Source: Bilabrum cf. latius (taxonomy: Eukaryota). From it: 64,000 bases of DNA. Both the position numbers and the translations under genes were made by a program. The stretch lies in the NCBI GenBank assembly GCA_965178125.1, contig OZ237760.1:558001-622000 (forward strand), read 5' to 3'. Below, piece after piece: positions 3,534 through 63,999 of this stretch. Within the stretch, counting starts at the first letter, position 1. Every line of letters starts with the position of its first letter. The notes under the pieces were generated by a model that saw nothing but the letters and a program-made list of their open reading frames with translations, was not told the origin of the DNA and ran no database searches.

Positions 3534-4841
3534 TCAACTGATATCGAACAAATCCTTCGGCAGATCGCTCGCAGCTGGGTAGCTCGTCTACGTCCCATGC
3601 TTTCCCACGGATGTGCTCGCTACATACCCCGCAGCCTGAGCCGCCTTGCACAACGCGTCAATGTCCTTGACAGCGGCCCTGGCGCTCGACCGCATCGCAG
3701 TCCCGGTGCCCGACTCGCCCCCTGCCCCGCTACCGCCCAGTCCACTGTTCCCCCCTCCGCACAGCGCGTGCACGAGTGCTCCATTGAACGCGTCCCCGGC
3801 TCCGGTGGTGTCCACCACGTCCCATGCTCCGCCCTCTGCAGCCCCAGCACCCTCGCCCTCACCCCCTTGCGCTGCACTGCCATGCGATGCACCTTTGAGC
3901 TGCTTTCCCCGTGGAGGCAGGAGCCCCACCCTCCTGGTCTCTACGCGCCCCCCCTCCCCTCGCACAGCCACGAGGCTCCCTGCGGAACCAAGAGTTACCA
4001 CCGCGGCGCCGACTCCATACACCTCCAGAATATCGGCGACATCGCGCTCTGGACTGCTGTCCTCTTCCTGCCTGCCTTCTCCACCTGCAGCTGGAGGCAT
4101 TCCCTCTCTGCTGGTCTTGCTGGCCCCTGTGGCTGCACCGCTGCCTTCAGAAGCAGCAGAGCCAGCCTTAGGCGCAGCTTCTATCTTGGCGCGTCTGGCA
4201 GCCTTTGCTAGTAGCGCACACTCGCTCTGGTTCGGTGTGACGAGATCGACCGTGCCGCAGAGGTCCGCTGGGAGCCCGCCCTCGGGGGCAGGGGCGGGAT
4301 TCAGAACGACGAGCGGCCGGTCCGTGCCCTTGCTGGCACCCATGTCGCCGATAGATGCATCTGCATCTGATGCTGGAGCATGCGCTACCTGGGCTGCCGC
4401 TGCGGCCGTATCCAACGGGACTTCGAGTTGCAGCAGGACCACTGCCGCGTTCCTAATATCCTCATGGCACGATCGAACGTGAGAGGGGCTAAGCATGCCG
4501 TTTGCCCCCGGAACAACAATAATAGAATTGTCACCGCTTGACGAGGAAACCATTATCATTGCTATTCCGGTTGGCGCGCCGCTAGTCCTTGCGATGCTTG
4601 AAGGATCGACTCCGATTCGTTCAAAGTGTCGAATATATTCTTCGCCATCCGTGTCATTGCCTGCCATACCAATGAATTTACATTGGGCCCCTAGCATTGA
4701 AACGATTACCGCTTGGTTGGCACCTTTGCCGCCGAAACTCCTGCTGAACATGGATCCAAGAATCGTCTCTCCGTCTGTCGGAATGCGTGGAGCGACAGCC
4801 GTTAGATCTCTAGACATAGATCCAACAATGACAACACTCAT
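3534..4841 (-). CDS. RBKS: Ribokinase (PfkB family), 435 aa
   Basis: VIVGS, FGGKGANQA, PTGIAMI, LNPAPA, TPNQSE, VDTTGAGDAFNGAL. The TAG at 3590-3588 reads through to GT(Q)TSYP...DLPKDLF, matching the ribokinase C-terminal GxQxSxP motif. TGA at 3536-3534. Confidence 0.92.
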
Positions 4842-29500: not shown

Positions 29501-31502
29501 CAGCGCATCTGCCGCCGCTGGTTCGGCTGCTGGTCCTGCCCGGCGGGTTGGAGGGTCGGGGTCATGGGGCGTGCGCGCCGCCATCCTGCCCGAATTCGAC
29601 GGCGACGTGCTAGCGCTCGCTCTTTCTGACACGTACGTCAACAGCCTGGAGCACAAGCGGGCTTTGGCCCGTGCGAATGTGCACGCCGTGTCTGCGGCCG
29701 CAGGGCGCTCGTTCGGGGCGTCTACCCGGGGCGGTCCCGCCTCTGGAGCGGGCGCTGATGACGACGGGCTCGCTGCACCTCCGATGCTTCGGAGGGTCAC
29801 CACCTCGGGCGGGGCCGGCGCAGCCGGGCGCTCCAGCAAGGACCGCGCGAAGCTCGGTGTGGAGGTGCTGCGGGACTGCTACGAGCGTCTCGTGGACTAC
29901 GTGGACGGCGGGTTCGAGGGCTCTCGCGCGGACGAGGAGCTCGTGGAGTACGTGAATGAGGCAGCTCGCGCGAAGGACTGGAAGACGTCCAAACTGCTCG
30001 GAGTGACGTGGGACGAGGTGGTGCAGGTGCACCCGGTGGCTAAGGACAAGGGCGAGGAGGCAAGCCTCAAGTCGTACCCGCACCTCAGGCGCCTGCCAGA
30101 GGCCGACAGGCGCGGCCGCCTGGCGGCGCGCTTCAAGCTGCTGCAGACACTCAACCGGATGGTTGCCAAGGCCCTCCCGTGGATCGATTTCAGCCGTTCC
30201 CTGGAGCCTGCCAGCCTCGCGTCTAGGATCTCCTCCATTGCACGGCTTGTCTTCGAGCCCGTGAAGCTGCCCCTGTTCTGGGCCGCAATGGAGAGGACCA
30301 AGAACTCCTCCGGCGGGGAGTCCAGCATCAACGTGGATCGTCTGCGGCCGACCGCCAGGCTGGGAGGGGGCCTCAAGGACACAGAGGGCAGGCACACGGT
30401 GTTCTCTCAGGTCTTCCGCAAGTTCCACTCCAAGCCTCCCAAGGAGCTGAGGAAGAGCGGCAAGTTCCTTGACGTGAGCTTCAAGGGCGAAGGCGCCATC
30501 GACGCGGGTGGCCCTTATAGGGAGCTTATCGGTGCCATCATGCCCGAGGACCTGATGAGCGACAGAATGGACCTGTTCTTGCCCGTGCCCAACGCGGCCG
30601 CGCACGTGGGGTCCAACTGGGACTTGATGCTGCCCAACCCGGGAGCGAGGTCCAAGACCTCCCTTGCCCTGTTCACCTTCGTGGGCAAGTTCTTCGGGCT
30701 GATCATGCGGCAGAAGATCTACATCCCCATGCGTCTCTCCTCGATTGTCTGGAAGGCCTTGTGCAACCAGGAGGCGGACGAGGCTGATCTGTGGGACGTG
30801 GATGAGCCCACCATGACCTTCGTGCAGAAGATCAGGCAGCTGGGTGCAGGGGACGGTAGCGCGGCCGCGGGAGGCGCGGCTGCCGGCGGCATGTCGGACG
30901 ACGTGTTCCGCCAAAAGTTCGAGCTGACGTACTCTACAAGCACGCTGGACGGGCGTCAGGTGGAGCTGAGGTCGGGCGGGAAGCGCCGGCCGGTGACGTT
31001 TGACGGCAGGCATGATTGGTGTGCTGCACGGGTCAGGCACAGGCTTAGGGAGGAGTTCGCGCCTCAGCTTGCAGCCATGCGCGCCGGGCTGGCCACCGTC
31101 ATCCCCTAGCGCGTGCTGAGTCTCTTCAGTTGGAGAGAGGTGGAGCGCCTCGTGTGCGGTGCCCGCACCGTGGACGTCAAGGTGCTCAAGGAGATGTGCG
31201 AGCTGAGCGGGTACTCCAAGACGGACAAGACGATCGAGCTGTTCTGGGAGGTCATGGAGGAGATGAGCCAGGAGGACAGGTGCAAGTTCATCCGGTTCGC
31301 GTGGGGCCGGTCGACGCTACCCATCAGCAAGAAGGACTGGGGTGACAAGTTCAAGATCTCCAAGTACAGTGGTAGCCCTGGCAGCCTCCCTCTGGCGCAC
31401 ACGTGCTTCTTCCAGATCGAGCTGCCGCCGTACGAGACGAAGAAAGACATGGAGGACAAGCTGCAGCTCGCTATCAACACTCTCAGCATGATGAACGGCT
31501 GA
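5559..31502 (+). CDS. Giant single-exon HECT E3 ubiquitin ligase, 8,647 aa (PHR, multiple SPRY-like, LamG-like, CUB-like, Kelch, MIB/HERC2, FN3, HECT)
   Basis: All long + ORFs from 5559 to 31502 share one frame, joined by 16 TAGs (6966, 7056, 7143, 8472, 9159, 11289, 12351, 14559, 15633, 15954, 20124, 23535, 23808, 25395, 28929, 31107) with no internal TAA or TGA. HECT motifs FKGEGAIDAGGPYRE and LPLAHTCFFQIELPPY (catalytic Cys). Ends TGA. Confidence 0.92.
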
Positions 31503-39963: not shown

Positions 39964-41490
39964 ATGGCACTGGTTGATGCTCATTGTCATGCGCAGCTCC
40001 TGCGATCGAACGAGCTTCGCTAGCTATGCACGAAAGCGCCTAGCTTCTGCCGTCTTGCTACGTGCTCAACTGCAACCGCAGATTGGTCGGCTACAGTCTA
40101 CACCGCACAGCGTATTATAAGGTCAACGGAGTAGTCCGAATGCCATACAAACAAACTTCGAATCGTAGTCGCGCTTGGAATACACCCGTACAGGTGTTCA
40201 GAAGCTTCTGACAGCTACGCTTCAAACCTTCGAGACGTGCTTGAACTCTGTCCGGGCGTCATTGTCGGAGAAATAGGCTTAGACAAGAGTAAAAAGGGAT
40301 TAAATGCATGTCCCTTTGACCTGCAGACTCGCCTATGTCGAGGACAACTTGAGATTGCAGCGCAATTAGGTCGGCCAGTTGTGCTTCACTGCGTGAGGGC
40401 CACAGGGCCTCTGGCAGAGCTCCTTAAAGAAGCGCAAGGCAATGCAAAGCACAATTGCTGGCAGGGTATCCCATCTGTTATGGTACACTCGTATGGTGGA
40501 AGTCCAGATGGCATCATCCAGATTCAAAAGGCTGCCCAGAAACCCGGAGGGAAAGGTACGCAAGTAAAAGTAGCTTTTGGATTCACAGCGGGTATGCTCG
40601 CAAATAAAATGGCCAAGAAGGCACGCTTAAGCGTGCAGCATTGCGCAATGGACCAGATTCTCTTGGAGACGGACTCACCGGACCAGCGGCCGCCGCAAGA
40701 TGCCATCGAGGCCGCATCGGCCGAGTGGGCGAAGGCGTGCGCCGCTGGTAATTACAGTAGAAGAGATAGAGCGAGCGGAAAGTGCACCACGGCTGCATCC
40801 CCTGCTGCAGGTGAAGCAACCAGGGACGGCTCCTCGACACCGGCGAGCGGGACACCAGTGGCAGGAAGGGCCGGCCCGGGTGCTTCATCCATCGCTTGTT
40901 GCGAGCCGTCCCGGGCTGCCGCATCAGCGGGCGGACCTGCCAAATGCGCAGCCGCGTCCGGAGATACAAGCATAGACAGAAATATCCCTATGAATGTGGT
41001 TGTTGCTTTGCATGAGGCATCCAAGCTCAAGTCTGTGGGGATGCTGGACCTCCTGGAAGCGGTGCGCGGCAACTTTGACGAGCTGTTCAGCGGGTACTGC
41101 ATACGCGACGCGGCCACGCTCGAGGAATACGAAGGCCACATTAAAGGCATTCTAGGTGCTGCGTGTGCGACTGGTGACCCTGATGAGAGAACAAAGGTCG
41201 AGTGCGAAGATCGTGATACCGACCGCGAGACACCGTCGTGCTGCGGGACCACTGCAAGCGCGGAGCCATCTGCTGGTCTAGAGGAAATATCAAAGCCAGA
41301 GGAAGGTGCCTCTGGGTCAACCATGAAGTCAAGCTCTTCGCCACCTGAAACATCAGAAGCGGCTGAATTGGAATCTCCCTCATTGCCAAGGTAGGCTACG
41401 GGCGAACCGCACGGAGCAAGACCAAGCACCGGCGCGGCGGGTGAGAGCAAATCCAAAGCAGAGGCGGCAGTGCCGCACAAAAGCAGCTAA
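39964..41490 (+). CDS. TATD: TatD-family metal-dependent DNase with C-terminal low-complexity extension, 508 aa
   Basis: VDAHCH, LGIHPY, VGEIGLD, PVVLHCV, HSYGG, ILLETDSPD. TAG at 40021, 40132 and 41392. First TAA at 41488-41490, followed by an AT-richer spacer. Confidence 0.88.
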
Positions 41491-41562: not shown

Positions 41563-44500
41563 TCATAGGTCAACGTCGTCTTCAGGCGAGAGACCATCTA
41601 GGTCATCCCCGCTGTCCACGCCCCCGGGCGTCGTGGCGCCAACCACGCCCTCATATACCCCACCGCCGCGCCCCGCGATTCCAAGGCTGAGGGGTCCTCC
41701 GTCAAACGACAGAGATGCCGCCCCGGAGAAACCACCGGACTGGATATCAAACCCGTCTTCCTCCATCGTGAGCATCCTCCGCTTGTCCACGTCGTCCAGC
41801 AGCGAGTACATGTGCGACAGCCAGGCACGGCGGTCCACGCCGGCCCGCTCCAGCTCGTCAGCCCACGCCTGCCCGTGCCTGGTCCGCAGCGAATCGAGGA
41901 TGAACCGCACGGACGCGTCGAAGCCTTGTCGCAGCCCCTCCCTCCTGGCTTGCGCCATCATGGCCTCAGCCGCCGTCGCACCGCCGCCTCCAGAGCCGAC
42001 CTCTGCCAGCAGCGCGGGCGTTGCCACGCTGACATGCGACGACGCGCGCAGTCTTTGAAGCTTGCCCCTGTTTGATTCGTCTGACATGATGCCGCCAGTG
42101 CCGGCCGAGGACGCTGCCCCACCAGCGCCGACATGCGACATGGCTGAACCCCGGCGAGCCCGGACCGCCGTGGCCGCAGAATTCGCACCCTCCCCTGCCA
42201 CTCCGCCCCCGTCCCGCGTGGCTTCCGCGGCGGCGTCCTCAAGCTCCTCTTGGAGAGACACCTCTCCGCGGGCGACGCGCTCGAGGAACGCTGCGTTTGC
42301 TGGGCCAGTCTCGTCGACCAGGGACCGGAAGATACCGTCGGGGTTTTGCAGGAGCTCAGAGGGAGGGCCGTACTCGGCCACCTGGCCCTTGTCCAGCACG
42401 AGAATGAGGTCGGAATCAATCACAGTGTTGAGACGATGGGCGATCGTTAGGCGCGTGATGCCTTTGAATTCCCTGCGCAGTGTGGCCTGCAGGATCGTGT
42501 CGGTCTCCGTGTCGAGGTTGGCGCTGGCCTCGTCGAGGCAGAGGATGTTGCTCTTCTTCAGCAATGCACGGGCGAGGCACAGCAGCTGCCTCTGTCCCAC
42601 CGACAGGTTGTTGCCGCCCTCAGCTACTGGATACTGCAGCTTCTTCGGGTGGCTCTCCACCAGCGGCGCGAGCTGCGCCTTCGTCAGCGCCTTCCACAGC
42701 GCCGTGTCGTCGTGCCGGTTGAAGGGGTCGAGGTTGTACTTGATGGTGCCTGCAAAGAGCACGGGGTCCTGCGGGATAATGGAGATGGCCTGCCTCACGT
42801 CGCGGAGACCGTACTGCGCGATGGTCTCGCCGTCAAACTCGATGCTGCCATCCTTGAGCTCGATCAGGCGATACAGAGCCTGCATGATGGAGCTTTTCCC
42901 CGCCCCCGTGCGGCCGCACAGTCCCACAGATTTTCCAGCTGGGATGGTGACGGTGAGCCCGTTCAGGACGGGAGGCAGGTCGGGCCTGTAGCTCATGACC
43001 ACGTCCTTCATCACAATCTTTCCCGTTGTGGGCCAGTGCTTGGGAGGCTTCGGCAGGTCGGAAGCTTCCAGAGGCTTTTCCGGCTTCACGTCGCACATCT
43101 CAAGCACTCGTTCCACCGAATTGAATGCGTTCTCCGCCTCAGCGAGCATCCGCAGGCACATATTGAAGCTGACCGTGATGGTGAGCGAATAGGACACTGC
43201 CAGCCCGACGTTCTCTGGACCGATCGCATCGCGGGACACGATACCAAAGACGGCGGTGGCGACAAGCATGAGCCCGCCGATCACCTCGAGCCGGATGGAA
43301 AGCCAGCGGTTGGCCGCGTTGGACATGTAGACCATCTTGATGTTGTTGTCCAGCTTGTTGGCCGCCTCGACCGTCTCCCTCTCCTCCGCGTCATGGGCCC
43401 GGATGATCGACATGCCGTCGAGCGTCTCCGTGAAATGGTTGTAGACTGGCGACCTCGAAACGGCGTCGAGTCTCTTGAGCTCCCTGCTGGAAGTCCTGAA
43501 CCACCTCTGCAGGAAGTAGAAGATCGTCATCAAGGGCACGTAGGCAACCAGTGAGTACGGCGTGGCCGTGCCAACGATGACCACGGTCCCCAGCAGCTGA
43601 ACAGCCGACGACATGAGAAGCTGCACGTTGAACATCAGCGCGGTGTCCATCGTGGAAACATCCTTCGCGAAACGATTCAGCAGTCTCCCCACCGGAGTCG
43701 CATCGAAGAAGGACATCGGAGCTCGGAGGATGCTCCACAGCAGCCTGGCATGGAGCACAGAGGACGCCTACACGCTTGCATTGGCTGCCATCACGGAGAT
43801 GAGCGCCTCCATGACGATGTTGAAGAACGACAGGGCGAAGTACACTCCCATGTACAGCTGAATCGTGCCGCCTTCGACGGCGTCCGTCGACCACACGCCC
43901 AGCCAGAAGCTGCTGCCCACGCGAGCGGCCTCTCCGAATAGCAGGGAGAACGCCACCGTAAGGAAGAAGCATAGTCCGCCAGCAGCCTCCACGTATCCCC
44001 AATAGACCTTGAAAGAGATGCCACCGACAGCTCGCTTCTCTTCCTGGATCAGCTTGGCTCTCTTCTTCCTCTCCTGCTTCTTCTTGTCCTTCTGGTCCTT
44101 CTCAATGCCCTCGACCTGGCTGCCTTCAGCCACGATGGCAGCGCTGGCCGCGCCGTCCTTGGGTTCTGGGGTGCCCAAAGCACCGCCAGCGGCATCCGCT
44201 GAGACCGATGTCCCGCCAGAAGCAGGAACCACTGCGGGACCGGAAGGGGCTGCAGCGCCGCCCCCGGCCTGCAGCTGCACATCATCAGCGGACGCAGCCG
44301 CCCCACCGCCACCTGCCTCGGCAGCAGCCGTGCCTTTCTCTTCCTCTTCTTGACCTCCCTCATCAGGCCCGCTCCTGCCTACAGTGGCAGCTCGGGCGTC
44401 GCGGCGCTTGGCCTCTTCTTCCGCCTGCTTCTCGCTGGCGAGGTGCTCGTGCATGAGGGCACCAAAGGCGGAGCCTTCCTGGTGCATGAGCTCGTTGGGC

Positions 44501-47500
44501 TTGCCAAACTCAACCACCTCTCCGCCGGCAACGACTAGCACCTTGTCGCAGTCAGGCACAAAATGCAGCTGGTTGGTCGCGACGATCCTCGTCTTGCCGC
44601 TGAGGTGCCCCCGCACGCACTCGTGGAACACCTTGGCGCTGACCTTGGCATCCAGTGCGCTGAGAATGTCGTCCAGAATCATGACGTCGGCATCGGAGTA
44701 GATGGAACGAGCCAGCGCCACGCGCTGCTTCTGTCCACCGCTGAGAGTGCCGCCCCGCGAGGCGAGCTCGGTGCTGTCTCCGGCACCGAACTGCTCGAAA
44801 TCGCTCTCAAGGTTGCAGGCCTTGACCACGCTGTCGTAGCGCTCCTGGTCAAAGGGCATGCCAAACACAATGTTGTTCTTCACGGTCTCCTGGAAGATCC
44901 ATGCCTGCTGCGGGGCATACGCGACGCTCCCGGACACGTACACTTCTCCCCTGCTGCAGTGCATGTCGCCGATGACCGCTGCGAGAAGACTCGATTTTCC
45001 ACCGCCAGTGGGGCCCACGATTGCGACCAGTTCCCCGGGCTGCACCTCAAAGTTGATCTTGCGCAGGGTGGGCTGGTCACCCCACTAAAACCACCCGCCT
45101 CTGACAGCCACAGAGCCGATCGGGCCGCGGACGGACTCGTTGTCCTTGCCGGCTCCCGAGCTGGACCCCTCCTTCCCGGTAATATCGTCGTCCTCATCGT
45201 CATCATCATCGTCATCGTCATCAGCAGCAGCCTCCTTGCCGGCATGCTTTCCAGTCGCCCGTGCCCCACCCCTGTAGACCGGGGTGCCGGGCAGGCCGTG
45301 GGTAGTGGCATCGAGTTCCTCTTCCCTCAGGAAATCCTGGATCCTGTTGATGCTCACCATGGTCTCGAGCAGCATGGCGGCAGTGCGCGGGAGCAGGAGC
45401 AGGGGCCAGAACGCGAGCTGGAACAGGGACAGGGAGTAGAAAGCCACGGCGGGAGTGAGCTCGCCGCCCGTCGCGGCAAAGGCTCCAAAGCTGCCAAGAG
45501 CCAGCAGGATGGGGTTGAAGCGGATCAGCAGCAGGCTGAACGAGCGAAACCAGGAAATCCACCGGATCCATCCGAGCTCCTCCTCTCTGTGGCTCTCGAT
45601 CTGCTCCTTCATGGGCTGCTCCCAGCTGTAATACTTGACCACGCGCGCGCCGGAGACGACTTCGCTCACTGCCTTCACCCTCGAGTCGGTGTGCTTCAGG
45701 TACTGCTTGGTCCACACGGCTACCGTGTTCATCACCCACAGCTGGAGGGGCAGTACTATAAACAGCGCCAGGAAACCAGCAAAGACAGATGCGCCGAGAC
45801 CGTCGTAAAGCAGGTACATGGCCACGGCCAGACGAACGGGTGCCGACCAGACGTTGTGTGCCATCTGGGCCGCCATCGCGATCTTCTCTGCGTCGCTCGA
45901 AATGAGGGAAGAGATCTGTCCGATGGACCTGCTCTGCCGGGCCTCGTGCGACATGCGGAGGCTCTTGCGGTACACCGCCTGGGTGAGGGCTGCTCTGGTG
46001 TTGAGACCGGCGTTGGTGACCTCGTGGAAGTACCTGCACAAGGGGGAAGCAAGCGAGGAGCGACGTGGGTGGGCGTGCTAGGGAATATTGACGCGACGCT
46101 GGGGAGGAACAAAGAAGGTTCCTCGGGAATAGCCGAGGCCAACCGATGATCCGATCCGATCCGATCCGATCCTGCTCACTTGTTCTCCGAGATGGTCATG
46201 ATCATGAGCGCGACGAACATGCCGGCCACCAGCGCGAAGGCGTACCCATTCCCGAACTCGGGGTCGTCGTCCTGCACCCAGTCGATGAGCTGCCTCAAGA
46301 GAATGCTGGGAGCGAACTGCGCACCGTTCTGGAAGGCAAGATACAGGCCCGCTGTGCCGAACTGGCAGCCGAAGGCGTACCGCATGGCCTGCAGCACCGA
46401 TGCCTCCTGCCCGTCTTGCTTGAACAGGTCCGTCCAATGCGCTGCAAAGCGCGAGTACACCGGCACGGACCGGTTGTGCCTGGGCAGCGGCTCGATGTCT
46501 TTCTGCAGCAGGGGTCGCTTGATCCCCAACGAGATGAGAGCGTCCACCCAGCTGAACACCATGGCGCTCAGGCAGGAAGCCTGCATTTCAGGGTGGTTGT
46601 CCGGCTCCGACTCCTGCCCAGGCTTTGCCCCGCGCACTCTGATCCCAGCCGCAAGTAGATCGTCTCGACCGATCCCGTAGTCCGAGGCAGCCACTAGACC
46701 GTCGTCGTCGAGCGACCCGCCTGGAGCACCGTCCGCGCCCGTTGCGTCTCTCAGCAGCTCCTCTGCCGTGACGAGTCTCCCAGTTGAGCGGTACTCCTCG
46801 TCCTGGTCGTGTGCTCGCAGCAGCTCGTCCTGCTCGGCAGAGGTGCCGACACCTTGCTCACCCCTGCGGATCCGCTCCCGGAGTGCCCGAACGTGCTCCT
46901 GCCTCCGCCTCAGCGCCCGGATGAGATCCAGGTCCGATTCCCTGAAGAGATAGGTCACGAGAACGCCCAGGACCTGGGAGCAGAAGGCCACGAGGTACAG
47001 CGCGAAAAAATAGGAACGGCCGTCGAGGCCGCTCAACACGATTTGGCTTCGCATGCGCACGCCCTCTGCCGCCACAGCGAACAGCAGAAGGAAGGGCACG
47101 ATGAAGCGGCCACGGGGCCGGTATCGCTTCCATTCGAAGAAGTACACTCCGAACATGGCGATCCAAGCCGCCATGTTCAGCGGCTCGGTGACAAGCTCGT
47201 ATGTTGCGAACGAGTCTGTGGCAATGAGGCCATTGAGCATCAACAGGCTAACGACTACTTGCGCTACCATTGCAAACGATACTATCGCCGATGGAATCAA
47301 TCCTACCGTGGCAAGCGGATCGGGCAGAGGAGCCACGCCGCTCAGCTGCCACGCCCGCACCACGAGCAGAATCAAGAACGCAAGCTGCACCACTCCTCGC
47401 AGGACAATATCTTCGAAGCACGGAGAGCTCCCAGTCAGCGACAAGTTGTCCAAATCGACCTCAGAGGACCATCCATTGTTCTGCAAGACGATCATTGAGA

Positions 47501-47644
47501 CTTCAGAAGATGCAACAAATCAAACGGGTCAAGCGCAACGACATTCAGCGGCTCCTAGCTCAAAATGGAATACTTTTGCAGTTGCCTGCATCCGAGCAAC
47601 CATACTCAACTCACTTGACAGAAACCTTCGATTGAAGAGCCCAT
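41563..47644 (-). CDS. ABCC: ABCC/MRP transporter (TMD0-TMD1-NBD1-TMD2-NBD2), about 1,933 aa; exons 47644-47615, 47480-46180, 46033-41563
   Basis: Walker A GPTGGGKS and GRTGAGKS, signatures LSGGQKQR and LSVGQRQL, FFDATPVGRLLNRF, RELKRLDAVSRSP. Introns GTGAGT...TTGCAG and GTGAGC...GTGCAG restore the frame. TAG at 45087 and 43770. Ends TGA. Confidence 0.92.
46148..46172. repeat. (GATCC)5 pentanucleotide microsatellite in ABCC intron 2
   Basis: gatccgatccgatccgatccgatcc read directly, next to the intron donor. Confidence 0.85.
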
Positions 47645-47831: not shown

Positions 47832-50081
47832 ATGATTCGAAGTAGCGGCACCTGTTGGCGAAGTGCGCTTAAAAACTACGCAAGGCTGGCTTGTAGACAT
47901 TTTTCATCGAGCACGGGCAGCAACCGCCCTGCATACGACGCTATTGTAATTGGAAGTGGATCTGGAGGCATATCCTTTGCAAGAGAAGCAAAGCGATTCG
48001 GTGCGGATGTCGCATTGCTGAACTATGTGCAGCCATCCGCGCACAGCGTTCAGTACGGCCTCGGTGGCACCTGCGTGAACGTGGGCTGCATCCCAAAGAA
48101 AATAATGCATCACGCAGCTGGTCTGAAGACCGGTTTCAATGAGATGAGCCACTTTGGCTGGAATGCGGAACACACGATGAGCCTCGACTGGAGCGCTCTG
48201 GTTGGTTGCGTCCAAGACTACATTCGGGGGCAAAACTTTGGGTACAAAACTGCTTTGCGCGACGAAGGCACTCACCTGATTGAGAAATGGGGCAGGGTCG
48301 GGGGAAGAGCAGTCGACGGCTCATTGCTGGTAGAGTGCCTTGCGCCACCAGGAGTTCCAGAGCTGTATCCGCAGGGCGGCAGCAGCGACAGCCACAGTGG
48401 CCATCATGAATCGGCAAGGGACACTGCATCCATTGAGAAAATCCATGCAAAGCACGTCATTGTGGCCGTGGGTGGTCGCCCAACGTACCCCGAGCAGCTG
48501 CCCGGTGCTCGCCTCGCCATCACCTCCGATGAGCTATTCTCCCTCCAGCGCCCCCCCGGCCGCACACTCGTCGTCGGGGGCGGCTACGTGGCCCTCGAAA
48601 CCGCCGGCCTGCTGAACGGACTGGGATTTGAGACAACTCTGGCTGTTCGCTCGATCCCCCTCCGTGGGTTTGACTCTGAGATGGCGGAGCGGGTGCTCCT
48701 CTCTCTCGAGGCGGAAGGGGTGCGCGTGCTGAGAGGCGCATCGCCGGCGGCCATCCGACGTGCGTCCGGAGAGGACCCCCCTCCTGTTTTTGATTCCGGG
48801 TAGAACTAGGAACCGCTTCGAGTGTCTTTGCAGGCAGATACCAGCCAGGGACAGGGAAGTCACTGTCGTGATGGCCATCTCGACCTTGAGGTAGACACGG
48901 TCGTGATGGCCACTGGCAGGCACGTGCTCACCGGGGGACTCGGTCTAGAATCCTTGGGGGTGCAGCTGGAGCCCGGCACAGGCAAGGTCGTTTGCTACGG
49001 TGACGATGATCCTGAGGGAAGGACAGAGACAGCCGTCGGCGTGGAAGGGGGCGGCATCCACGCGGTGGGAGACGTGGTGGCGGGTCGTCCGGAGCTCACG
49101 CCGGTGGCTGCCCGAGCGGGCAAGCTGCTTGCCCGCCGGCTCTTTGCGCAGCTCTCGAAGGGTCAAGTGGGGAGCAGTGCGGCATCGGGCGCCAGCGATG
49201 TGCTTTCCTTGGATCCCTCGACCAAGAGTAGCGGCGATGCTGACCCGTTCGGATCCCTTGACCTCGGTGCATTGGGTGCTGCACCAAGCCTCGGCCTCGC
49301 TGCAGGCAGTACCGGGTCTAGCTCTGGAGGTGGTGGTATCTTGGGCGGGCTGGACCTTACTCCCCTGGTGCCTTCGTCATAGGGGGTGAAAGCGGGCGAG
49401 TCGACTGCGTCGGCTGGCTTGCCCGCGGCCTCGTGGCACGATGGTACCGAACGAATGGACTATAGCTGCGTGCCAACAGCTGTGTTCACCCCAGTCGAGT
49501 ACGCCTGCGTGGGATTGTCAGAGGATAAGGCGGTTGATAAACACGGGGCGGATCGCGTGAAGGTGTATTGCCTTGAGTACGACACGCTCGAGATGTCGGC
49601 TGGGCACAGGAGGGAGGCGCAGGAGGCAGAAGCCAGGGAGAGAGCCAGCCGGAAGGAGGGGGGCCCAATGCCGCCCCCCATGCCTCGCTGCATGCTTAAA
49701 ATCGTGTGCAGGGCGCATGGGCGGGATGGTTTGGTTGACGGGGCTGCGGGCAGAGCGGATGCTGGCTCATGCGCGCATAGTGCAGACGCGTCGCCTGAAG
49801 TCGAGGAGGAAGAGGTCCTCGGTCTGCATGTGTTTGGACCAGGTGCCAGCGAGGTCATGCAAGGGTATGCCGCGGCCATGTCGGTCGCAAAGCAGGTGTC
49901 TGCTCGCTTAGCAGGGCGCGGTGGCGGCAGATCGGATGCTTCTGGCATGGTTCTTGGCATGACCAAGCGGGAGCTCGAGGCATGCATCGGGATCCACCCC
50001 ACGCATGCCGAGGAGGTCGTGGGGGCCGACCGGTGGAAGGGGAGTGGCGTGTCGATGGTGAAGTCGTCTTGCTGAGGCTAA
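47832..50081 (+). CDS. TXNRD: High-Mr selenoprotein thioredoxin reductase, mitochondrial type, 749 aa, C-terminus ...KSSC-U-G-stop
   Basis: GSGSGG, GGTCVNVGCIPKK, GGGYVALE, RPELTPVA, PTAVFTPVEY, GIHPTHAEE. TAG at 48801, 48807 and 49380. Ends TGC TGA GGC TAA (50070-50081). The Arg/Ser-rich, acid-free N-terminus resembles a mitochondrial presequence. Confidence 0.92.
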
Positions 50082-50141: not shown

Positions 50142-50204
50142 GAGAATAGGACAGGCTCAACAGGCAATAAGCTGCGGGGTGCAGAGTGGGTGTGTCCCAC
50201 TCGT

Positions 50205-55869: not shown

Positions 55870-58857
55870 ATGGCAGCCGCATCTGCAGGGATAACCCAGC
55901 AACTTAAGCACATCGTACAGCTTGAAAAGCGTAAAGAAGAAGCAACTGATTTCCAAAAGGATGCACTAAAACTTGATGCTGAAACAAGGAGGATGAGCAA
56001 CACGGCCTCGATCATACAGCGGGACCTGACAAGCGCTTCAGCTGGCCTTCAAGACTTATCTTCAAGTCATGATCAAGTTAAGAGTCTTATGGCTGCTGTT
56101 CGAAAGGTCAGTGCACAGAACATTGAGCAGAGGCAGGCCGCTCTGCATCACCTTCCTACGAGCCTAGCGCAGCTGGCCAGCGTGGAACGCAGACTAGCCC
56201 AGCTTCTCATGCGAGCTGCTACTGCGCATGATTCTGACAAGTGGATGACTGGTACCTTTCAGCCGGAGAAATCGTCTACCTTCGCTGAAGATGGGCAGCT
56301 CAGCGATATGTGGGCTAGCCCATTGATGGCGTCTACATGCCTGCAACCCGGTAGCCTTCACTCGTCTGTCACAAAGGCCATTGCCGCAGCAGAGCAGCAT
56401 GAAAACGTTGCTGCTAAAATTCGTTCTGATGCCTTCATGCAGCAAGCAATTTCACCGGATGAAGACGCCGTCAGCCACTCTTCGTCGTCTTCTGGCAGCG
56501 ATGATTCTTCGGACAGTGATGACGATGAATCGGCGGAGATCACCTCGTTGATTGGATCAGGGACAGGTTCGAAAGGTCCAAGCCCATCATCAGGCCCTGC
56601 CAGCAGCAAGGACTCTTCTACGTCGTCTTCACAAGACGAAAAGGCTGCATCGGTGACTGAGGTGCTATCTACCATGCGGCCGGGCCTGACTCTCCGTCGT
56701 GGCGGCATCTCCTTTCCATCGGGTGATGAGCCCAACTCGTTGCCATGGTTCAGCAAAGAGCCTTTACTTACCTAGTTGATCGAGCCCACGGGCCACAGCC
56801 TCGCACAGTTCTCCATCGATGTCCAGGACAACATCGCGCTGGCAGCTGCTCGCCTGTGGCACCCGGCGAGCAGGATGACCAAGTGTGTCGGCGAGATGCT
56901 GCCATTCCTGCCAGGCTTCCCATCGGACGGCTGGGTAGATGCGAGTCGGCAGGAGGCCTCGCTCGAGGCTAAGGCCAGCCTGCATGTCGCGCTCTTCCAG
57001 CGGAACACTACGTTGAACATACCGAGCCCGGCACTGACAGCCACTACAACAGCCAGAGGCGAGCCTGTGGCATCGATTGAGGCAGAACTTCATAGGAAGA
57101 GGCTAGCAGTGGCAAGAGCCTTTTCGACGGTGCTTACGGCAACGGACAGATCTCGCGAAGCAACGAAGTCTGCGGAGGAGCTACTTGCCAAAGCATGTGA
57201 GCTCTGGCATGCTTTACCATGCACGACACGCGTTGCGTACCAATGCTTTCGCCGTATACTTTCAAATTTCACACTTAAATTCAATTCTATTCGCAGCTAC
57301 TATCTCATCTATGGCTGCTTATATCAGCGATGTCGGGGGGGCAGAGTCTGATATCGCAGAAGAGGCTTCCATGGCCAGGGACGACATCCAGCAAGCCGCC
57401 AAGGTCGCAGCTGGGCAGACGGCTGTACTCATGCCGGTCCGTACCGAGCTGCAGCAGCTCGATGAAGCAATTTCTGCGAAGCAGATCGAGATCAAGAAGT
57501 TCCAGGGCCGCATCCAGTTGGTTAAGGAGCAGCTTGAGCACAACGCAGAGACCCGTGGAGTCGACGTTCACTTCTAGAGACCCGGTCCGCTGGCCAAGCA
57601 CGAGGACAGCCTCCAAGCGCTCAACGGAAAAGCTATGAGAATGGAAGAAGATGGGATGAAGCTCCATGAGTCGGGCATGAGCGTCATTTCGCAATCCATG
57701 GGGCAGGTCACCAAGGAGATGGAACAGCTGCGCGGATGGATCACGGATGCAGCCGCAGCAAGCGCGACCATGGCTCGCACCGTGCAGAGCAGCCCCACAA
57801 CTACAGCTTCACTTTTTGCTGATGCATACAACACAAGCAGTGGTACCATTGCACATGTTAGCGAAACCCTAAAGCAGATGCAGGCATGCCTCGACCAGGT
57901 CGCGTTCGGGCTGAACAGTTGTACCTCGGACGCAGTCGCACAGGCCGCCAGCGTTTACTGCGGAAAGACTGCAGAACTTGCTACGGCATGCAATCAATGC
58001 TTGGATGCTACTTCGAAGGCAATCGCACAGCTTGCAGATGCTTGCATGCAGAAGGCGAAGCAAGTCGAGACGCAGCGCGCATCCATGGCAGACGAGGTGA
58101 CCACGCTCAAGTAGTCTGTCGCTGAGTGGATGTCCGCACTGCTGGAGGAGCACTTCAACGTGTTATCCGAAGACTGTCTTAAATTTAAGACGGGTACTGT
58201 CGGATTCGTGGAGATCGCGACAAAGCTCCGATCCTAGCTGCAGCAAGCGAGCTCTGTTGCAGAGGTCGAGGAGGTGCTGCTGGAGTTCAAGCAGCGACTA
58301 GCTGATGCCAGCGAAGCAGAGACAGATGCAGCAGCTCTGGAGCAGAAGGAATCGGAGACCATCCGCAAAGAAGCAGCTGCTATTGACTAGAGGGTACAGG
58401 CCTTGCGCGCCAAGGCTGGATCGGTTCACCGCAACCTGCTCGAGAGCGGCGCGGCCATCGCCCGTGTGGCCCAGCAACGTCTCATCGCGAGCGACGGTGC
58501 GTAGCAGAAGCTTGCAGCAGCACTTGAAGCTGCCGCTGCGTGCACTGAAGGGCCAGCCGAAGTCCCGCTCCACGCATCGACCAAGAGCCTCCGTCAGCTC
58601 TCCCAGACTCTCCGCGAGGTGCTGCTCGACAGCATCCGAGACGAGACTGTAAGACTTATTAGCTCGATAAACATAGGGATAAGTATAATTGATCTTGCAT
58701 GCATTCAGGAAAATGGCTCAATCCAAAGCATACTTGCCCCTCGCAGACTGCCAACGACCTGATCGACCACCTTGAGGAACATGGCGACACAGCAGCTGCA
58801 AGCGGTGCTCGGGTCAAGACCGCGTTGGCAAGCCTGCAATAGATTAGTGCGAAGTAA
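55870..58857 (+). CDS. Uncharacterised coiled-coil-rich protein, about 929 aa; exons 55870-57196, 57297-58648, 58747-58857
   Basis: Heptad-like A/E/Q/L/K-rich sequence. Introns GTGAGC...TCGCAG (100 nt) and GTAAGA...TCGCAG (98 nt) are AT-richer and restore the frame. 7 TAGs. Ends TAA 58855-58857. Confidence 0.7.
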
Positions 58858-58971: not shown

Positions 58972-61900
58972 TCAGCCAAGGGCTCGCAGCGCAGCAATAA
59001 GGCTCCTTGCCGAAGCTGATGTCGCTTTAAGCAGCCGCTAAAGACCCAGTGTGCCCTTTTCCATGAATTGAATCCGGCTAGTATACACTTCCACGATATC
59101 CATGAGCTCTTCAGCTTGTTCCTGTGAACACACAATTGATCCAGACTGCACCAACAGCTCGAGCCGTTGCATGATAAGATTTGGCATTCCTCTTGCCCAG
59201 CAACCGCCCAGCAAAGCATCAGCGACCGAAACTTCCATCGCACTGCCGAGCTTCCCAACAAGCCCAAAGCGCTGGATGATCGGCAGGAGCGCGAGCATGG
59301 TGGCTGGCGCTTGATACGAATCAACCCGCCCAATCTCCATGATTCGCGTGCACAGACTCGTGCTTGCAATGAGGTCTACTACACCTCTGCTGCCAAGTTC
59401 CACACTATGTGACCTGCCTTCGGCCGGGCTGTTTGCACTTGAGAGCACGGCAGATCGCAACAGCAGGTCGAGCAGAAGCATCTGCTCTCGGCTTTGCATC
59501 GCAACTTGGCATGCTGAGCTCGAACCTATCCCCGCCGAAGCAGCCGCGATAACTCCATCGCCCCCAGGCGTTAACTTCCCCGCCAGTCGTTTCTTCATGG
59601 CAACCATGCCGCGCATCCAGACCATCATGGCCTCTTGGCAGCCGCTTGAGCTTGTCCCGGCATCCGCTCTCTTGGCTGTGCCGCCATCAACACCAGCTGC
59701 TGCAGTTGTAGCCAAGTCGGGCTCATCAAACGGGCGCTAGTACAACAGAGATACGGGAAGTTTCTTTGCTACTAGCGGGTAGACTTCGGCGGGCGTCCAC
59801 ACCATGGTCGATTCCGATTCACAAACTGGCACGGTTGCACTGCCGTCAGCCGTAGCAGCAGCACCAGCCACACAGGTCTAGTCCGGAATCGAAGTGCCAT
59901 CTTCTTCTGCCAGCGATCGTAGCAATGCAAACATCTAGTTTGGATTCAGCTCTAGCAAGCTCTATGCACTCAGCAAAGGATCCAGTGCAGCCTAACACAC
60001 CTCAACGGCAGCCTGCCTTGCTCTCCTCCTCCTGTCGCTGATTATTCCTTCACTCGCTGCTTCAGCAGACGTCGCAAACATTGAGACCCGCTCGTCGGCA
60101 AACGATTTCTCCTAGCTTGCTGCTCCGAATAAATCATTGGCTGCGGAAATCTGCAGCTGGATCTGCGCCAACTCAGCTGCAACGAGTCGACCCATGGTTG
60201 GCACTCTCGATGTCCGCCGGCCTCCTTCAGCAGCACAGAGCAGGTGCATAGCTGCAAGGAATGGGTGCTTTTCGTCCGGTGGTGTTGCTATTCTGTGAGC
60301 TATCGAAGCCAATGGTGCATAACTCAGCTGAACCTGGCTCGGGAGATAGGTATCCCCGGCTGCTGTCAATCCAGGCGAGCCAAGCTGCGATTGGTGGTTT
60401 CGCATGTCTCGCAGGAGCGGCTTGCATACCCTTCTGTAGGTATCTGCCGACCAAGGTGCTTTGTACACCGCCTGAAGTATCACACGAGAGCAAATGCACA
60501 GTAATGACTCGGCTGGTACCGATAAGCTTGACAGCTTGTGCGCGTGACTGCTAGCCGGGCTCGATCCATGCGTCCAGCACGCACACCTGAACGCCTTCTA
60601 GACCGCACATTCCACGCGTCTGCTTCCAGGACTCACGACATACTGTAAGCTTCCTTTGGATGCCACTGATGGAGCTCGCGCTCCCCGAGCCTAGCTAGCG
60701 CGAACAGCACCCAAGCACAACGTGAGCAACCTCACTGGCATAACTCTGTTCTGTCGAGGCTGCACCCCGCTGCTGGCAAGTGACAAGCAGGCGTTTACAC
60801 ACGATCCTCCAAGTAATGCTAGCCTCGATAGCAATAATGCATCATCTTCCAATAGGTCTCTCGGCTTCAAAAGAAGCCTGGGTCGGTTGGGCTGCATTGG
60901 TCCGGGCAAAGCTTCCAGAAAAGCAGCCAGTCCGGCGACTTTTGCGTCCGGTTCTGTTAGCGACAAAAGGCAAGCGTAGATCTAAATTGTCCCAGCGGGT
61001 TGTCCATATAGCAATAGGCTTCTGGATGCATCGTCGATGCAGTGCTTCGCAAAATCGTACGAGAACGGCGAAAGAGCGCTGGCCGCTGAACGACTCGGAG
61101 GTACCACCCAGCGCTGGAGAATCTGCTCTGTGAGCAAAGATAAGATCACGCAGGAGGGAGCAGCATGAGCTAACACCCACTGCTTCTGGCCCACTTTCTG
61201 CGCTTTGCTGCAGCGCGCTGCAGAAGTCCTCGAAGAAGGCCCTCCTCCTCCCTTGGCTCTTGCTCGTCTTGATCGCCGAGACTTCGAGCTAGCAGCCCCA
61301 GGGCTGCCTCCGCTGGCACTGCCAGCCCGATCTTCTTTGCCTGAAGCAATTGAAACATGCAGTGGCATGGATTGGTGCAGCAGCGCCCAGCCTTGTATCT
61401 GGCTAAGCGGGACTTGCCTGCTGTCGCACATACGCTAATACAAAGCCGGCAGCCTGTGCTACAGCGCGGCGCGAGTGCTCGGAAGCATGCAGACCAGCGC
61501 ACCAGATTCATGCCCTTCTTCCACAAGAACCCTCTGTGTTGACATACTTGTGGTAAGCGGTCTCAGTGTCGGCAACAATACGACGTCTGACAGCTTGCGC
61601 TACCCTCCGTCCAGAATGTGCCCGGACGGTACGATTGGAATCGACATAATGCCGGATCCACAGGGAACCTAAAGAGGAGAAATGATGCAACTTGCTAACT
61701 GGAGCATACGAACATGCTCATCTGTGAGTTCACTTGCATCGCCATGGCCTACAGAAGCCTCTGGTCTAGTCCCGGTCCCCATGATTCTAGCATAACACAT
61801 GGCTCCCACATGCACCAGGGCGGATGGGATGCTGTGCACGGCGCCTTCCAGCTGAGCTGTTCCTACAGCCCGCTCCACGGCCTCTTGTATCTGCTTGGCG

Positions 61901-63999
61901 CACTCGAGCAGCTCGGAACCGATTCCGACGGAACCAAGATCAGCTCCAATCTTACGTGGATAGGTCTGACCGGGAGACGCATCGACAACACAGACCAACT
62001 CCGCAATTGCACTTCGCACCTATGGCGTGTCGTGTTGGTCTACGGCGGCGCATACTGCGGCCAGTGCACTAATGAGGCTTTCGATCAGGTTCGCCATGTT
62101 GTGCTTAGTGCTGCGGCACCCAGATACACCGAGTGCCCTGACTGATCCAGTCGTGCAGCGGATGGCCTTGACGACGATATCGCAGATGACATCAACCTGG
62201 AAACGTATCAAGCCTTGATCTTGTTTCTCCTGCGTTGTAGCGCTGCCACCGGAGCTGCTTGCGGCTGATAGTACCTAACAAATGCCGTCCAACTGCACCT
62301 GGAGTGTCTTCATCGTGAACAGTAGCTACGAGCATAGCGATTGCTCGAGGTGCTCGTGAACAAGCCGCAGGTCGTGACTGCAACCTTTACCGGTCACTGG
62401 TGCATCATCTTCGATCTCAAACTCACTGCCATGCGTGTGGCAATGCTGCCAGCAATCAGATCCGCCACTCGTTGCACCTAGGGCCCCCTCCCCTAGCTAG
62501 CTTTCTCTTGCAGTAGCAGCGAGTTTCATGGCGTGGCCGAATTCAATGGCGCTGCATGTTTCAGCGACAGTGCTCAGCCAACCTTGCATCGCACTACCAT
62601 CACGATACGGTTCAGATCTGCTCGCTGCGCGAACCATGGACCCAAATGAGCTGGAGCCACTCGCCTGTCCGTGCGACTCTCGGTCGCTAAATGAGATACC
62701 AGCTGAGTCAATTTCGGGTGCAAGTATCTCACTTGCCCGCCGTAGCATGCGCACTGCAAGGTCAACCGAGTCGCAACTGGTGTGAAACGAATCGCTCCAA
62801 CAGACGCCACGACCCGATGCACCCCCCGTATCGCGGCCGAGTTCGGCTGCACGTCCTTCTCTCAACATCTGCTGGTCTGCAGCTGCAGCTCCCAGCAGCT
62901 TCCTCGCATTCCTGACGCAGAGGGTTGCCAACCGGTCTCGAAAGAGCGGCGGGGCCTGCTTGCTTGTAGCTGAAGGGGAATGATGCATGCCTGGAAGTGC
63001 CGGCAGGGGTGCCTCTCTTATTTCAACCGGTGAGTCTGAATACGAGGCCCGGAATGCTCCCTCCTTCTCTATGGACACTGCGTGCGCACCACTCGCACGA
63101 AACAGCTCAAAGATAGCTCCAAGTGGCATGGCAGACAAAGATTCCGCTGGAACCGAATCAAGCTGCCGGCGGAGTTCTGCGGATCGATCCGGCGATGACT
63201 GCGGTGTTTCCACAGCTGATTCCGCACGCTGTAGAATCCACTCGTGGCTGCTGTCCAGGTCGAGCAAGCCTACCAAGCTTAGAGTCACACCACGTGGATG
63301 AGATGCTTGATTGGTGTCGTCTGCGTACTGCTGCTTGGCTGTCTTTCGGTCTGATTTGAGGCTGTCGGGGTCGCTGATTCCGTCGTGGCTGCGTTGCAAG
63401 CTGAACACCCTCACAATCTAGCTGCCAGGCCGCCGAACAACAAAGTAGCTCTTGGATGCGTCGGTGCAAGCTCGGTGCAGAAACGCAGAAACATGGCCAG
63501 GGGTATCAGCACCGCTACCTCCACTGTGGTCCGCTCCTTCCTTGCCAATGCTATGCACCGCAGATCTGCGTGGTATCCCATCCTGTTCACGAGGCACGAT
63601 CGAACATTCGTCTTCGCATGTGCCCGCCGGCTCATCCACTGTCGATTCCACAGATGCGCTGGAGGGCAACGCCAGTGCAGGCAAGCCGTACGATCCACTC
63701 GAGGGCATTGCTTCCACGACTGGCGAGCTCCCGGCAAACTGGAGATCTAGATCAACGCCGACTGATGCAAACCTACCGCTTGGGTGATCGTTTAGCCATG
63801 CATCTAGCTAGCGCATGGCTCCGGCTGCGTTACTGGTGGAAGCCATGTGCCTCGAATCTAGGCTCCCGCGGAGGACCGCCGCGTGCTGCATCGAATGGTA
63901 TGCTAGCTGTGCTCGTCTTACCAACCTGCTTTGATCCCCTGGCACGCTGCCCTTCCGGGTACGCTGCGATGACCCCGTCCTAGTAGGATGCTACCCCGT
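58972..63999 (-). CDS. 3' part (1,675 aa or more) of a large uncharacterised protein entering from the right edge
   Basis: Manual translation gives a single frame from 63999 to TGA at 58974-58972 with 21 TAGs and no TAA or internal TGA. No family recognised. Confidence 0.78.

Follow-up and report, generated by a model that had tools for sequence, protein, structure and literature searches.

A probable nuclear code with UAG as glutamine and UAA and UGA as terminators in a GC-rich eukaryotic DNA window

Can UAG serve as a sense codon in a nuclear genome in which UAA remains a terminator? This question is raised by the last gene, g15, of a 64-kb stretch of DNA, the whole of which was analysed and is called the window below.

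58972..63999, minus strand: g15, open at the window end, with 1675 sense codons and a TGA stop at 58972-58974

A sequence-only reading of this DNA had counted 21 TAG and no TAA codons between 58972 and 63999, and our recount agreed exactly; the frame also holds 46 CAG and 21 CAA codons. The GC and GC3 contents of g15 are both 0.56; the corresponding values for the giant HECT ligase gene of the same window are 0.65 and 0.77. The two off-frames of g15 contain 8 and 5 TAA and 21 and 38 TGA triplets, that is 72 of these triplets against none in frame in 1675 codons, and TAG is about as frequent in frame (21) as in the off-frames (22 and 15). The earlier reading had also held that, with CAA in free use, TAA should have appeared if it too encoded glutamine. 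This argument is sound, as 9.6 TAA codons would be expected in g15 alone and none was observed (P = 3.7e-4). The absence of in-frame TAA from g15 is greater than expected by chance.

The 13 gene models of the window comprise 19,884 codons, with 79 in-frame TAG, no TAA and a single TGA, which is the selenocysteine codon of a thioredoxin reductase (TrxR). Every one of the 13 has in-frame TAG, and in-frame TAA is absent from all of them, in agreement with the claim that TAA is missing from the other 12 genes as well; the off-frames of these genes hold 62 and 61 TAA. The expected number of TAA codons was calculated by setting the TAA:TAG ratio equal to the CAA:CAG ratio, gene by gene. This gave 28.1 codons across the 13 genes (P = 7e-11 for the observed zero), and using the A:G ratios of glutamine, glutamate and lysine codons together gave P = 5e-14. 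Codons ending in A are common for these three residues in genes where in-frame TAA is zero. Ten of the 13 genes end at TGA, three at TAA and none at TAG. Of the glutamine-type codons, TAG accounted for 5% in the HECT gene, where GC3 is high, for 24% in g15 and for 54% in one of the PAQR genes. TAG behaves like a non-preferred glutamine codon, a pattern that fits a steady C-to-T input from CAG under weak selection. In-frame TAGs fall inside the Pfam domains PHR, HECT, PfkB, ABC, TatD and HlyIII, and NCBI table 15 (TAG = Gln) yields open frames in the window.

As TAA was taken as a stop in defining the open reading frames, the absence of in-frame TAA is partly built into these counts. The answer to this bias lies in the frames themselves, which tile most of the window and singly cover whole domain architectures. 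A codon-score scan of all 363 TAA triplets found nine that were coding on both sides, all antisense to annotated genes; the score cannot tell sense from antisense frames of GC-rich genes, and the scan therefore adds little.

The following features bear on the residue encoded by TAG.

3534-4841, minus strand: ribokinase gene, with an in-frame TAG (3588..3590) at an invariant glutamine column
5559-31502, plus strand: HECT ligase gene of 8647 codons, with a PHR domain and a HECT domain
7143..7145, plus strand: PHR-domain TAG of the HECT gene, at the Q position of the conserved GQIP motif
31107..31109, plus strand: TAG in the HECT domain, where the best-matching chain (HECTD3) has Q and the next three have S, D and K
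352-1761 and 2003-3319 (together 352..3319), plus strand: tandem PAQR/HlyIII paralogues g1 and g2, with a nearly identical 3' stretch
41563..47644, minus strand: ABCC transporter gene, with two in-frame TAG, a TGA stop (41563-41565) and two GT..AG introns of 146 and 134 nt
59737..59739, minus strand: TAG in g15, facing Q in the database relative P0121 (82% identical)
59038..59040, minus strand: TAG in g15, facing K in P0121 and Q in the distant P0122 (30% identity)

The ribokinase TAG column is occupied by Q in 119 of 120 homologues, the other having a gap, and by Q in P0001, a protein 89% identical to the ribokinase. In the two solved ribokinases with a printed alignment over this column, the residue is Q (5zwy) and S (6whj). 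All three solved PHR chains carry Q in the GQIP motif. The C-terminus of the ribokinase is common to its relatives, and the HECT domain extends to the final residues before the TGA stop. No Pfam family matched g15, and none of 8000 scored candidates similar to it in length was a homologue; an exhaustive search with its last 1200 residues returned only two matches, P0121 and P0122, both of them fragments. The sequence after the TAG at 59038..59040 is still conserved, through to a C-terminus common to g15 and its relatives. An AlphaFold prediction for the last 352 residues of g15, made with three sequences, had a mean pLDDT of 40.8 and was unusable as a model.

Across the PAQR paralogues the residues opposite TAG are Q, Q, K, H and E; one further TAG is present in both copies, and another lies opposite G in the badly aligned N-terminus. 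Within the nearly identical 3' stretch, CAG (1552-1554) stands opposite TAG (3110-3112) and TAG (1492-1494) opposite AAG (3050-3052), and one Q/TAG pair is a single C/T change. In orthologues on L002, a metagenome contig described below, and at sites with six or more of 10 flanking residues identical, the codons opposite TAG are CAA, CAG, AAG and CGC. The two ABCC columns are variable and not rich in Gln: S is the commonest residue at the TAG in NBD1 (74 of 120 homologues; Q in 2), and R, F, N and Y lead at that in TMD2 (Q in 4 of 120). At one of these ABCC columns the aligned residue is Leu in 7 of 120 homologues; Leu is never the codon partner of TAG in well-flanked paralogue or orthologue pairs. 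UAG is an ordinary sense codon, found in every one of the 13 genes and retained in transcript-like contigs, and it occupies glutamine positions.

Three genes of the window were read as ending at TAA.

39964..41490, plus strand: TatD-like gene, with three in-frame TAG, ending at TAA 41488-41490
47832..50081, plus strand: TrxR, a large thioredoxin reductase, with three in-frame TAG, ending TGC TGA (Sec, 50073-50075) GGC TAA (50079-50081)
55870..58857, plus strand: three-exon gene (exons 55870-57196, 57297-58648 and 58747-58857, both introns putative), with seven in-frame TAG, ending at TAA 58855-58857

All three had been claimed as natural ends. Those of TatD and TrxR are read directly, but the TAA at 58855-58857 is a gene end only if a putative 98-nt GT..AG intron (58649-58746) is removed. 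Coding-frame scores led to the proposal of this intron, as did its resemblance to the two ABCC introns with RNA support, whose splice ends it matches; a TAG lies four codons before the resulting end. The convergent ABCC gene has its stop 72 nt beyond the TatD TAA, and the TatD orthologue in L002 also terminates at TAA. The Cys-Sec-Gly-TAA end of TrxR has the same nine bases in L001-L004, and the window and L002 proteins are 58% identical across 673 aligned residues. Nucleotide conservation of the locus collapses about 8 nt past the TrxR TAA. UAA ends genes at conserved ends, and it is never in frame in the sample.

Of the contigs of the sequencing run X5, one (39944-41487) lies over TatD with no differing letters, and intron-skipping contigs over TatD, ABCC and TrxR likewise showed no differing letters. 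The ABCC contig skips both introns yet retains both TAGs, and ends 58 nt past the stop; a loose end with a run of A lies 59 nt past the stop of a gene ending at 39753. The run is labelled 'RNA? (probably DNA)', and we take it as RNA-derived because introns are skipped and because of this one A-run end. The in-frame TAGs are neither edited nor spliced out. A 6527-nt transcript-like contig of X5 spans 58783-59499 of the g15 region and then continues beyond. All words sampled from a 10-kb section (41000-50999) are present in four runs of one sample. Three further runs, which belong to two other studies, gave contigs over 39500-59499 that for the most part match the window at 99% or more. A fraction of only 0.05 of the sampled words was present in the two runs that carry the labels algae and protist metagenome, and no RNA run was among those listed as containing the sequence.

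The metagenome contigs L001-L004 are syntenic relatives of the window and, with identical 3' ends, may represent one relative. In 2306 aligned codons it has 8 TAG and no TAA, where 5.5 TAA would be expected (P = 0.01), and each of four orthologue pairs ends at the same stop codon in the window and in the relative. The sample for the code is thus one 64-kb window and about 2.3k codons from one relative, a size at which a rare sense TAA elsewhere in the genome is possible. One search with ABCC gave named matches at only 34-48% identity, spread across animals, plants, fungi and Thecamonas, and this equidistance leaves the lineage unplaced. Among genome_contigs the related loci were bacterial ABC genes only (32-39% identity), and none was found among viral_contigs. 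The window is a contiguous multi-gene stretch of 64 kb with GT..AG introns of 98-146 nt and a GC content near 60%, an architecture that we take to be unlike that of a ciliate macronuclear genome. Tentatively, and at somewhat less than even odds, the window and its relatives (L001-L004, P0001 and P0121) may form an undescribed protist clade, not near any named group, with its own UAG-to-Gln reassignment, a GC-rich genome, and UGA as both main terminator and selenocysteine codon. If so, here would be a UAG-only reassignment that is not readily explained by AT-driven codon capture, and the existing genome assembly would allow its tRNA(CUA) and eRF1 to be read off directly.

Taken as a whole, the data are best explained, with a probability of roughly 0.85, by a eukaryote, GC-rich and poor in introns, with a nuclear code that has UAG as glutamine and UAA and UGA as terminators, UGA also specifying selenocysteine in thioredoxin reductase. 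Support for the genetic reading comes from independent tests of several kinds, namely codon ratios, decoding at conserved glutamine columns, the codons of paralogues and orthologues, and the Cys-Sec-Gly-TAA end in two species; on these the central claim of the sequence-only reading, TAG as sense and TAA as stop, has held. A dedicated tRNA-Gln with anticodon CUA would read UAG. Its C34 would be unable to pair with the A of UAA, so that UAA would stay free for eRF1, which may have lost or weakened its recognition of a third-position G while still reading UAA and UGA. A tRNA scan of the window and L001-L004 found no genes, and eRF1 is not among the genes of the window. Rfam searches returned no SECIS element and no other credible family, either in the window at gathering scores or in 50000-50600 at E values up to 10. 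The sequence at about 50207-50260 forms a well-folding hairpin (z = -2.95) with AUGA and an AA bulge; as it lacks a clear 3' GA, we did not call it a SECIS.

We considered whether UAG might encode a residue other than glutamine, for example Ser (the Scotinosphaera code), Leu (that of the rhizarian exLh), Lys or Glu. Serine is indeed most frequent at one of the ABCC TAG columns and is found in one solved ribokinase, and K lies opposite TAG in three close comparisons. The invariant glutamine columns of the ribokinase and of the PHR motif nevertheless make such a code very unlikely, as do the Q residues that relatives 82-89% identical carry at TAG positions; the well-flanked partner codons are CAG, CAA, AAG, GAG, CGC and a His codon, and never Ser or Leu. 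Lower again in probability is a context-dependent code of the Condylostoma/Blastocrithidia type, in which UAA (or UAG) is sense or stop depending on its closeness to the mRNA 3' end. The very short 3' UTRs suggested by the 59-nt A-run end and the 58-nt end of the ABCC contig would suit such a code, as would the TAG four codons before the TAA at 58855. Set against this are the zero in-frame TAA among 19,884 codons, the lack of any gene ending at TAG among the 13, and the conserved sequence that follows TAGs 18 and 21 codons before a stop. Neither triplet is both in frame and a terminator in the 13 genes, a small sample in which rare dual use would be possible.

It is more improbable still that UAA and UAG both encode glutamine (NCBI table 6), with TAA missing through GC richness and small sample size. 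GC in the window is 0.54-0.68; TAA is the rarest of the three stop triplets on its plus strand (185, with 384 TAG and 829 TGA), and genes of high GC3 use few codons ending in A, the HECT gene having 24 CAA to 257 CAG. However, the expectation of about 28 TAA was derived from gene-specific CAA:CAG ratios, g15 contributing 9.6, and none was seen; the off-frames are not short of TAA, and in two species TAA stands immediately after Cys-Sec-Gly in TrxR. We give almost no credence to the TAGs being artefacts of assembly error, splicing or RNA editing, or to g15 being a decaying pseudogene. The lack of a Pfam family for g15, and its near lack of homologues, would favour decay, but g15 has no TAA or TGA in frame against 72 off-frame, and relatives of the window have the same trait. 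The agreement of the four runs of one sample and of the three further runs, and the intron-skipping contigs that retain TAGs without a differing letter, also stand against artefact.

Reassignment of UAG alone to glutamine is already known from Iotanema and some ciliates, and the present case is a further example. In the nuclear code reported for the fornicate Iotanema spirale, UAG is glutamine and UAA and UGA are stops (Panek et al., 2017; PMC5304391), and the mechanism set out there, a predicted tRNA-Gln(CUA) unable to read UAA together with an altered eRF1 (T32G in the GTS motif), is the one predicted here, so that the proposal of an eRF1 rejecting UAG and a C34 tRNA-Gln is not new. The window resembles Iotanema in giving UAG alone to glutamine and retaining UAA, but UAA is the primary stop in Iotanema, whereas the window has TGA at 10 of 13 ends and TAA at three; Iotanema is, moreover, described from a transcriptome only (PMC5304391). 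The window organism also differs in being GC-rich (0.54-0.68) and in its Sec-UGA. Among ciliates, the phyllopharyngeans Hartmannula sinica and Trochilia petrani, and Protocruzia tuzeti, read UAG as glutamine and keep UAA as a stop (McGowan et al., 2024; PMC11687900). In-frame UAG is present in 78-91% of their genes and in 13 of 13 here, but UAA makes up 87-98% of their stops and UGA is the rarest, an order reversed in the window (PMC11687900).

UAG alone has been given to other residues in the rhizarian exLh and TARA ciliates (Leu) and in Scotinosphaera (Ser) (PMC11687900). These share with the window the decoupling of UAG from UAA and differ in the residue, glutamine being supported here and Leu and Ser not. 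Both UAA and UAG are glutamine (table 6) in many ciliates, hexamitin diplomonads, some ulvophytes, Streblomastix and Amoeboaphelidium (PMC5304391; PMC11687900). UAG has the same meaning in those codes and in the window, but UAA here serves to end genes and is absent from the reading frames. NCBI table 15 is used for some crAss-like phages, where the table is formally the same but translation is by bacterial ribosomes with termination by RF1/RF2 and not eRF1 (PMC9523058). Lineages in which UAG and UAA differ in meaning are few, about half a dozen being named in these sources (PMC5304391; PMC11687900). A search of titles and abstract openings in open-access PMC and bioRxiv found no description of a GC-rich protist with UAG as glutamine.

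Such splits are natural experiments indicating that the eukaryotic translation machinery can distinguish the two codons, and a GC-rich case that uses selenoprotein and has TGA as its main stop broadens the conditions under which the split is seen. It bears on the debate between codon capture and an ambiguous intermediate, and on why UGA rather than UAG was kept. Annotation of this genome, or of environmental relatives, with the standard code would cut nearly every gene to pieces, and the relatives in the databases are such fragments: the first residue of P0121 directly follows a TAG position, and 58 residues are missing from the start of P0001.

The sequence-only reading had reported 21 TAG and no TAA codons in the frame at 58972-63999 on the minus strand (g15, which is open at the end of the window). 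Our recount gave exactly these numbers, together with 46 CAG and 21 CAA codons among 1675 sense codons (stop TGA 58972-58974, GC3 0.56). The frame is clearly coding, since the two off-frames of g15 together hold 13 TAA and 59 TGA triplets against none in frame, and TAG occurs at a similar frequency in frame (21) and off frame (22 and 15). No Pfam family matched g15, no homologue of similar length was present among 8000 scored candidates, and an exhaustive homologue search returned only two matches, both fragments. Structure prediction for the last 352 residues gave a pLDDT of 40.8 and was unusable.

The GC content of the window is 0.54-0.68. Reading TAG through increased the total length of frames with at least 300 codons between stops from 59 kb under the standard code to 105 kb (six frames), with a longest frame of 8650 codons, and reading TAA through instead left the total almost unchanged. 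Most long frames were identified through Pfam as ordinary eukaryotic genes. With splice sites considered, 13 gene models were counted, in agreement with the g15 and 12 other genes proposed earlier. The features assigned by Pfam are as follows.

352-1761 and 2003-3319, plus strand: two PAQR/HlyIII paralogues
Ribokinase
5559-31502, plus strand: giant HECT ubiquitin ligase, 8647 codons, with PHR, SPRY and Kelch domains
31882-32994 and 33179-34285, plus strand: two BNR sialidase-like paralogues
34819-39753, plus strand: folate-receptor/VWA/Cache protein, 1644 codons
TatD, stop TAA 41488-41490
ABCC transporter
Large thioredoxin reductase (TrxR), plus strand, 3' end TGC TGA GGC TAA at 50070-50081
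GH85 enzyme

The giant HECT ligase is one unbroken frame with 16 in-frame TAG codons. Its PHR domain is N-terminal and its HECT domain C-terminal, and the protein also has several SPRY-like repeats and a Kelch propeller. The protein at 34819-39753 combines two folate-receptor-like Cys-rich regions with a VWA domain and Cache-like domains, an arrangement that we take to be reminiscent of calcium-channel alpha2delta subunits. Two tandem gene pairs are present. The BNR sialidase-like genes share 96.6% DNA identity, and the PAQR/HlyIII genes are 59% identical overall with a nearly identical 3' part (3 positions differ in the last 75 residues, and 14 nucleotides from 1488 to the stop), which suggests gene conversion. 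TatD and ABCC are convergent, with 72 nt separating their stop codons (41487-41565). ABCC apparently starts at ATG 47642-47644 on the minus strand, with a short first exon of 10 codons ahead of a 134-nt intron, within which the ATG at 47495 from the ORF list falls.

The 13 gene models comprise 19,884 codons, among which we found 79 in-frame TAG, no TAA and a single TGA, the selenocysteine codon of TrxR; every gene contains at least one TAG. Gene-by-gene CAA:CAG ratios, applied to TAA and TAG, predict 28.1 TAA codons, and the probability of all 79 being TAG is 7e-11 (5e-14 with A:G ratios taken from Gln, Glu and Lys codons together). The argument that TAA should appear in g15, as CAA is used freely there, also stood, with 9.6 TAA expected and none seen (P = 3.7e-4). 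As a control independent of codon ratios, the off-frames of the 13 genes contain 62 and 61 TAA triplets. The zero is partly built in, because TAA was treated as a stop in defining the frames; this caveat is weakened, as some 28 sense TAAs would have fragmented the frames, which tile most of the window and hold whole domain architectures within single frames. When codon scores were scanned on either side of each of the 363 TAA triplets, 9 sites were coding-like on both sides, all antisense to annotated genes, and the scan was too unspecific to add much.

What TAG encodes was judged from aligned homologues. The strongest single column is that of the ribokinase TAG at 3588-3590, where 119 of 120 homologues carry Q and the remaining one has a gap; a ribokinase relative 89% identical (P0001) also has Q there, and one solved ribokinase has S, which does not point to Gln. 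In PHR, the TAG at 7143-7145 matches the conserved GQIP motif at its Q, which is present in 3 of 3 solved PHR domains, and the other two PHR TAGs fall in variable columns (E/K/E and M/M/Q). In the HECT domain, the chain that matches best has Q opposite the TAG, and the three chains ranked after it have S, D and K. For g15, the TAG at 59737-59739 is Q in P0121, a protein fragment 82% identical, and that at 59038-59040 is K in P0121 and Q in the distant fragment P0122. Residues facing TAG between the tandem PAQR paralogues are Q, Q, K, H and E; one TAG is common to both, another pairs with G where the N-termini align poorly, and CAG 1552 differs from TAG 3110 by a single C/T change within a nearly identical stretch. 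In orthologues on L002, a metagenome contig from a relative, TAG faces CAA, CAG, AAG and CGC, counting sites with 6 or more identical residues among the 10 flanking ones. Two ABCC columns do not point to Gln, since S is commonest in NBD1 (74/120; Q 2/120) and R, F, N and Y lead in TMD2 (Q 4/120). As the Gln columns are invariant and the non-Gln columns variable, these alignments indicate that TAG is read as Gln. It looks like a non-preferred Gln codon, with a share of TAG+CAG+CAA of 5% in the HECT gene (GC3 0.77), 24% in g15 and 54% in the second PAQR gene.

The 13 genes end with TGA (10) or TAA (3), and none with TAG. Three TAA ends had been claimed, of which those of TatD (41488) and TrxR (50079) were borne out, and the third holds only under an inferred gene model. 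For TAA 58855-58857 to be a gene end, the frames 55870-57196, 57297-58648 and 58747-58857 must be joined across putative introns of 100 nt (GTGAGC..CGCAG) and 98 nt (GTAAGA..CGCAG); the coding-frame score switches at these junctions, and the introns are similar to two ABCC introns described below. TrxR ends Cys-Sec-Gly-stop, the usual C-terminus of the family, and TrxR in each of four metagenome contigs (L001-L004) ends with identical bases. The four contigs are identical to one another at the 3' end, and may represent one species.

L002 (1-12151) is syntenic with the window at 31.9-50.1 kb (ABCC, TatD, BNR and TrxR), and each of the four orthologue pairs has the same stop codon (TGA, TAA, TGA, TAA). 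Protein identity between the window and the relative contigs ranges from 44% (TatD) to 77% (ABCC tail), with 58% over 673 aligned residues for the L002 TrxR. The L002 frames are open only with TAG read through, and TAG as a sense codon is common to L001-L004 and the window. Counts for the relative over 2306 aligned codons are 8 TAG, 0 TAA, 41 CAG and 28 CAA, with 5.5 TAA expected (P = 0.01). Conservation of the TrxR 3' end stops about 8 nt past the TAA; these 8 nt (50082-50089) are identical in L002, and the remaining 3' UTR has diverged. A stable hairpin (about 50207-50260, plus strand, AUGA and AA bulge, z = -2.95) lies 130 nt downstream of the TrxR TAA; none of the SECIS models in Rfam gave a match.

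Contigs of four public sequencing runs were compared with window positions 39500-59499. Those of one run (X5) are gene-sized, covering TatD (39944-41487), ABCC (41505-47615) and TrxR (47767-50076), with no letter differences from the window. The ABCC contig joins 41505-46031 to 46178-47480 and continues to 47615, skipping two GT..AG introns, and we therefore take X5 to be RNA-derived, although the tool labelled it 'RNA? (probably DNA)'. If so, the in-frame TAGs of TatD, ABCC and TrxR are neither edited nor spliced out. A 6527-nt X5 contig covers the 3' end of g15 from 58783 and continues beyond the compared stretch. A loose end with an A-run lies at 39812, 59 nt past a TGA stop, and 3' UTRs are apparently very short (58-59 nt where seen). 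The TatD contig stops at 41487, the base preceding the TAA, and the ABCC contig at 41505. In a minor X5 contig, with depth 5.1 where the main form has 22, position 50070 is followed directly by 50139. The 68 nt missing between them have non-canonical GC..CC ends, with a 6-nt repeat at the joint, and their loss would take away the Gly-TAA end of TrxR; an assembly artefact or template switching may account for this contig.

Within this sample, a code with UAG as Gln and UAA and UGA as stops is well supported, and the counts, the Gln columns and the conserved TAA ends support the genetic reading proposed from sequence alone. With UAG sense and UAA a stop, the simple decoder left would be a tRNA-Gln with anticodon CUA, whose C34 would be unable to pair with the A of UAA, and eRF1 would no longer compete at UAG. 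No tRNA genes were found in the window or in L001-L004. That one gene can hold as many as 21 TAGs, as g15 does, suggests near-complete decoding rather than leaky read-through.

The decoupling of UAG from UAA is already known from published UAG-only cases, and the mechanism proposed here is the published one. In Panek et al. (2017; PMC5304391), UAG-only reassignment is first shown, to Leu in the rhizarian exLh and to Gln in Iotanema spirale, for which, as here, a CUA tRNA-Gln and an altered eRF1 are invoked. The paper by McGowan et al. (2024; PMC11687900) repeats this argument and lists UAG as Gln, as in the window, in Hartmannula, Trochilia and Protocruzia, as Leu in TARA ciliates and as Ser in Scotinosphaera; UAA ends 87-98% of genes in the ciliate Gln cases, whereas TGA is the main stop in the window. 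The window organism adds another case, which differs from the known ones in its GC-rich genome, TGA as main stop and UGA also encoding Sec. No description of such a GC-rich organism with UAG as Gln was found among open-access PMC and bioRxiv titles and abstract beginnings. In a search with one gene, ABCC, named matches were 34-48% identical and came alike from animals, plants, fungi and Thecamonas, and unnamed environmental proteins reached 50-53%.
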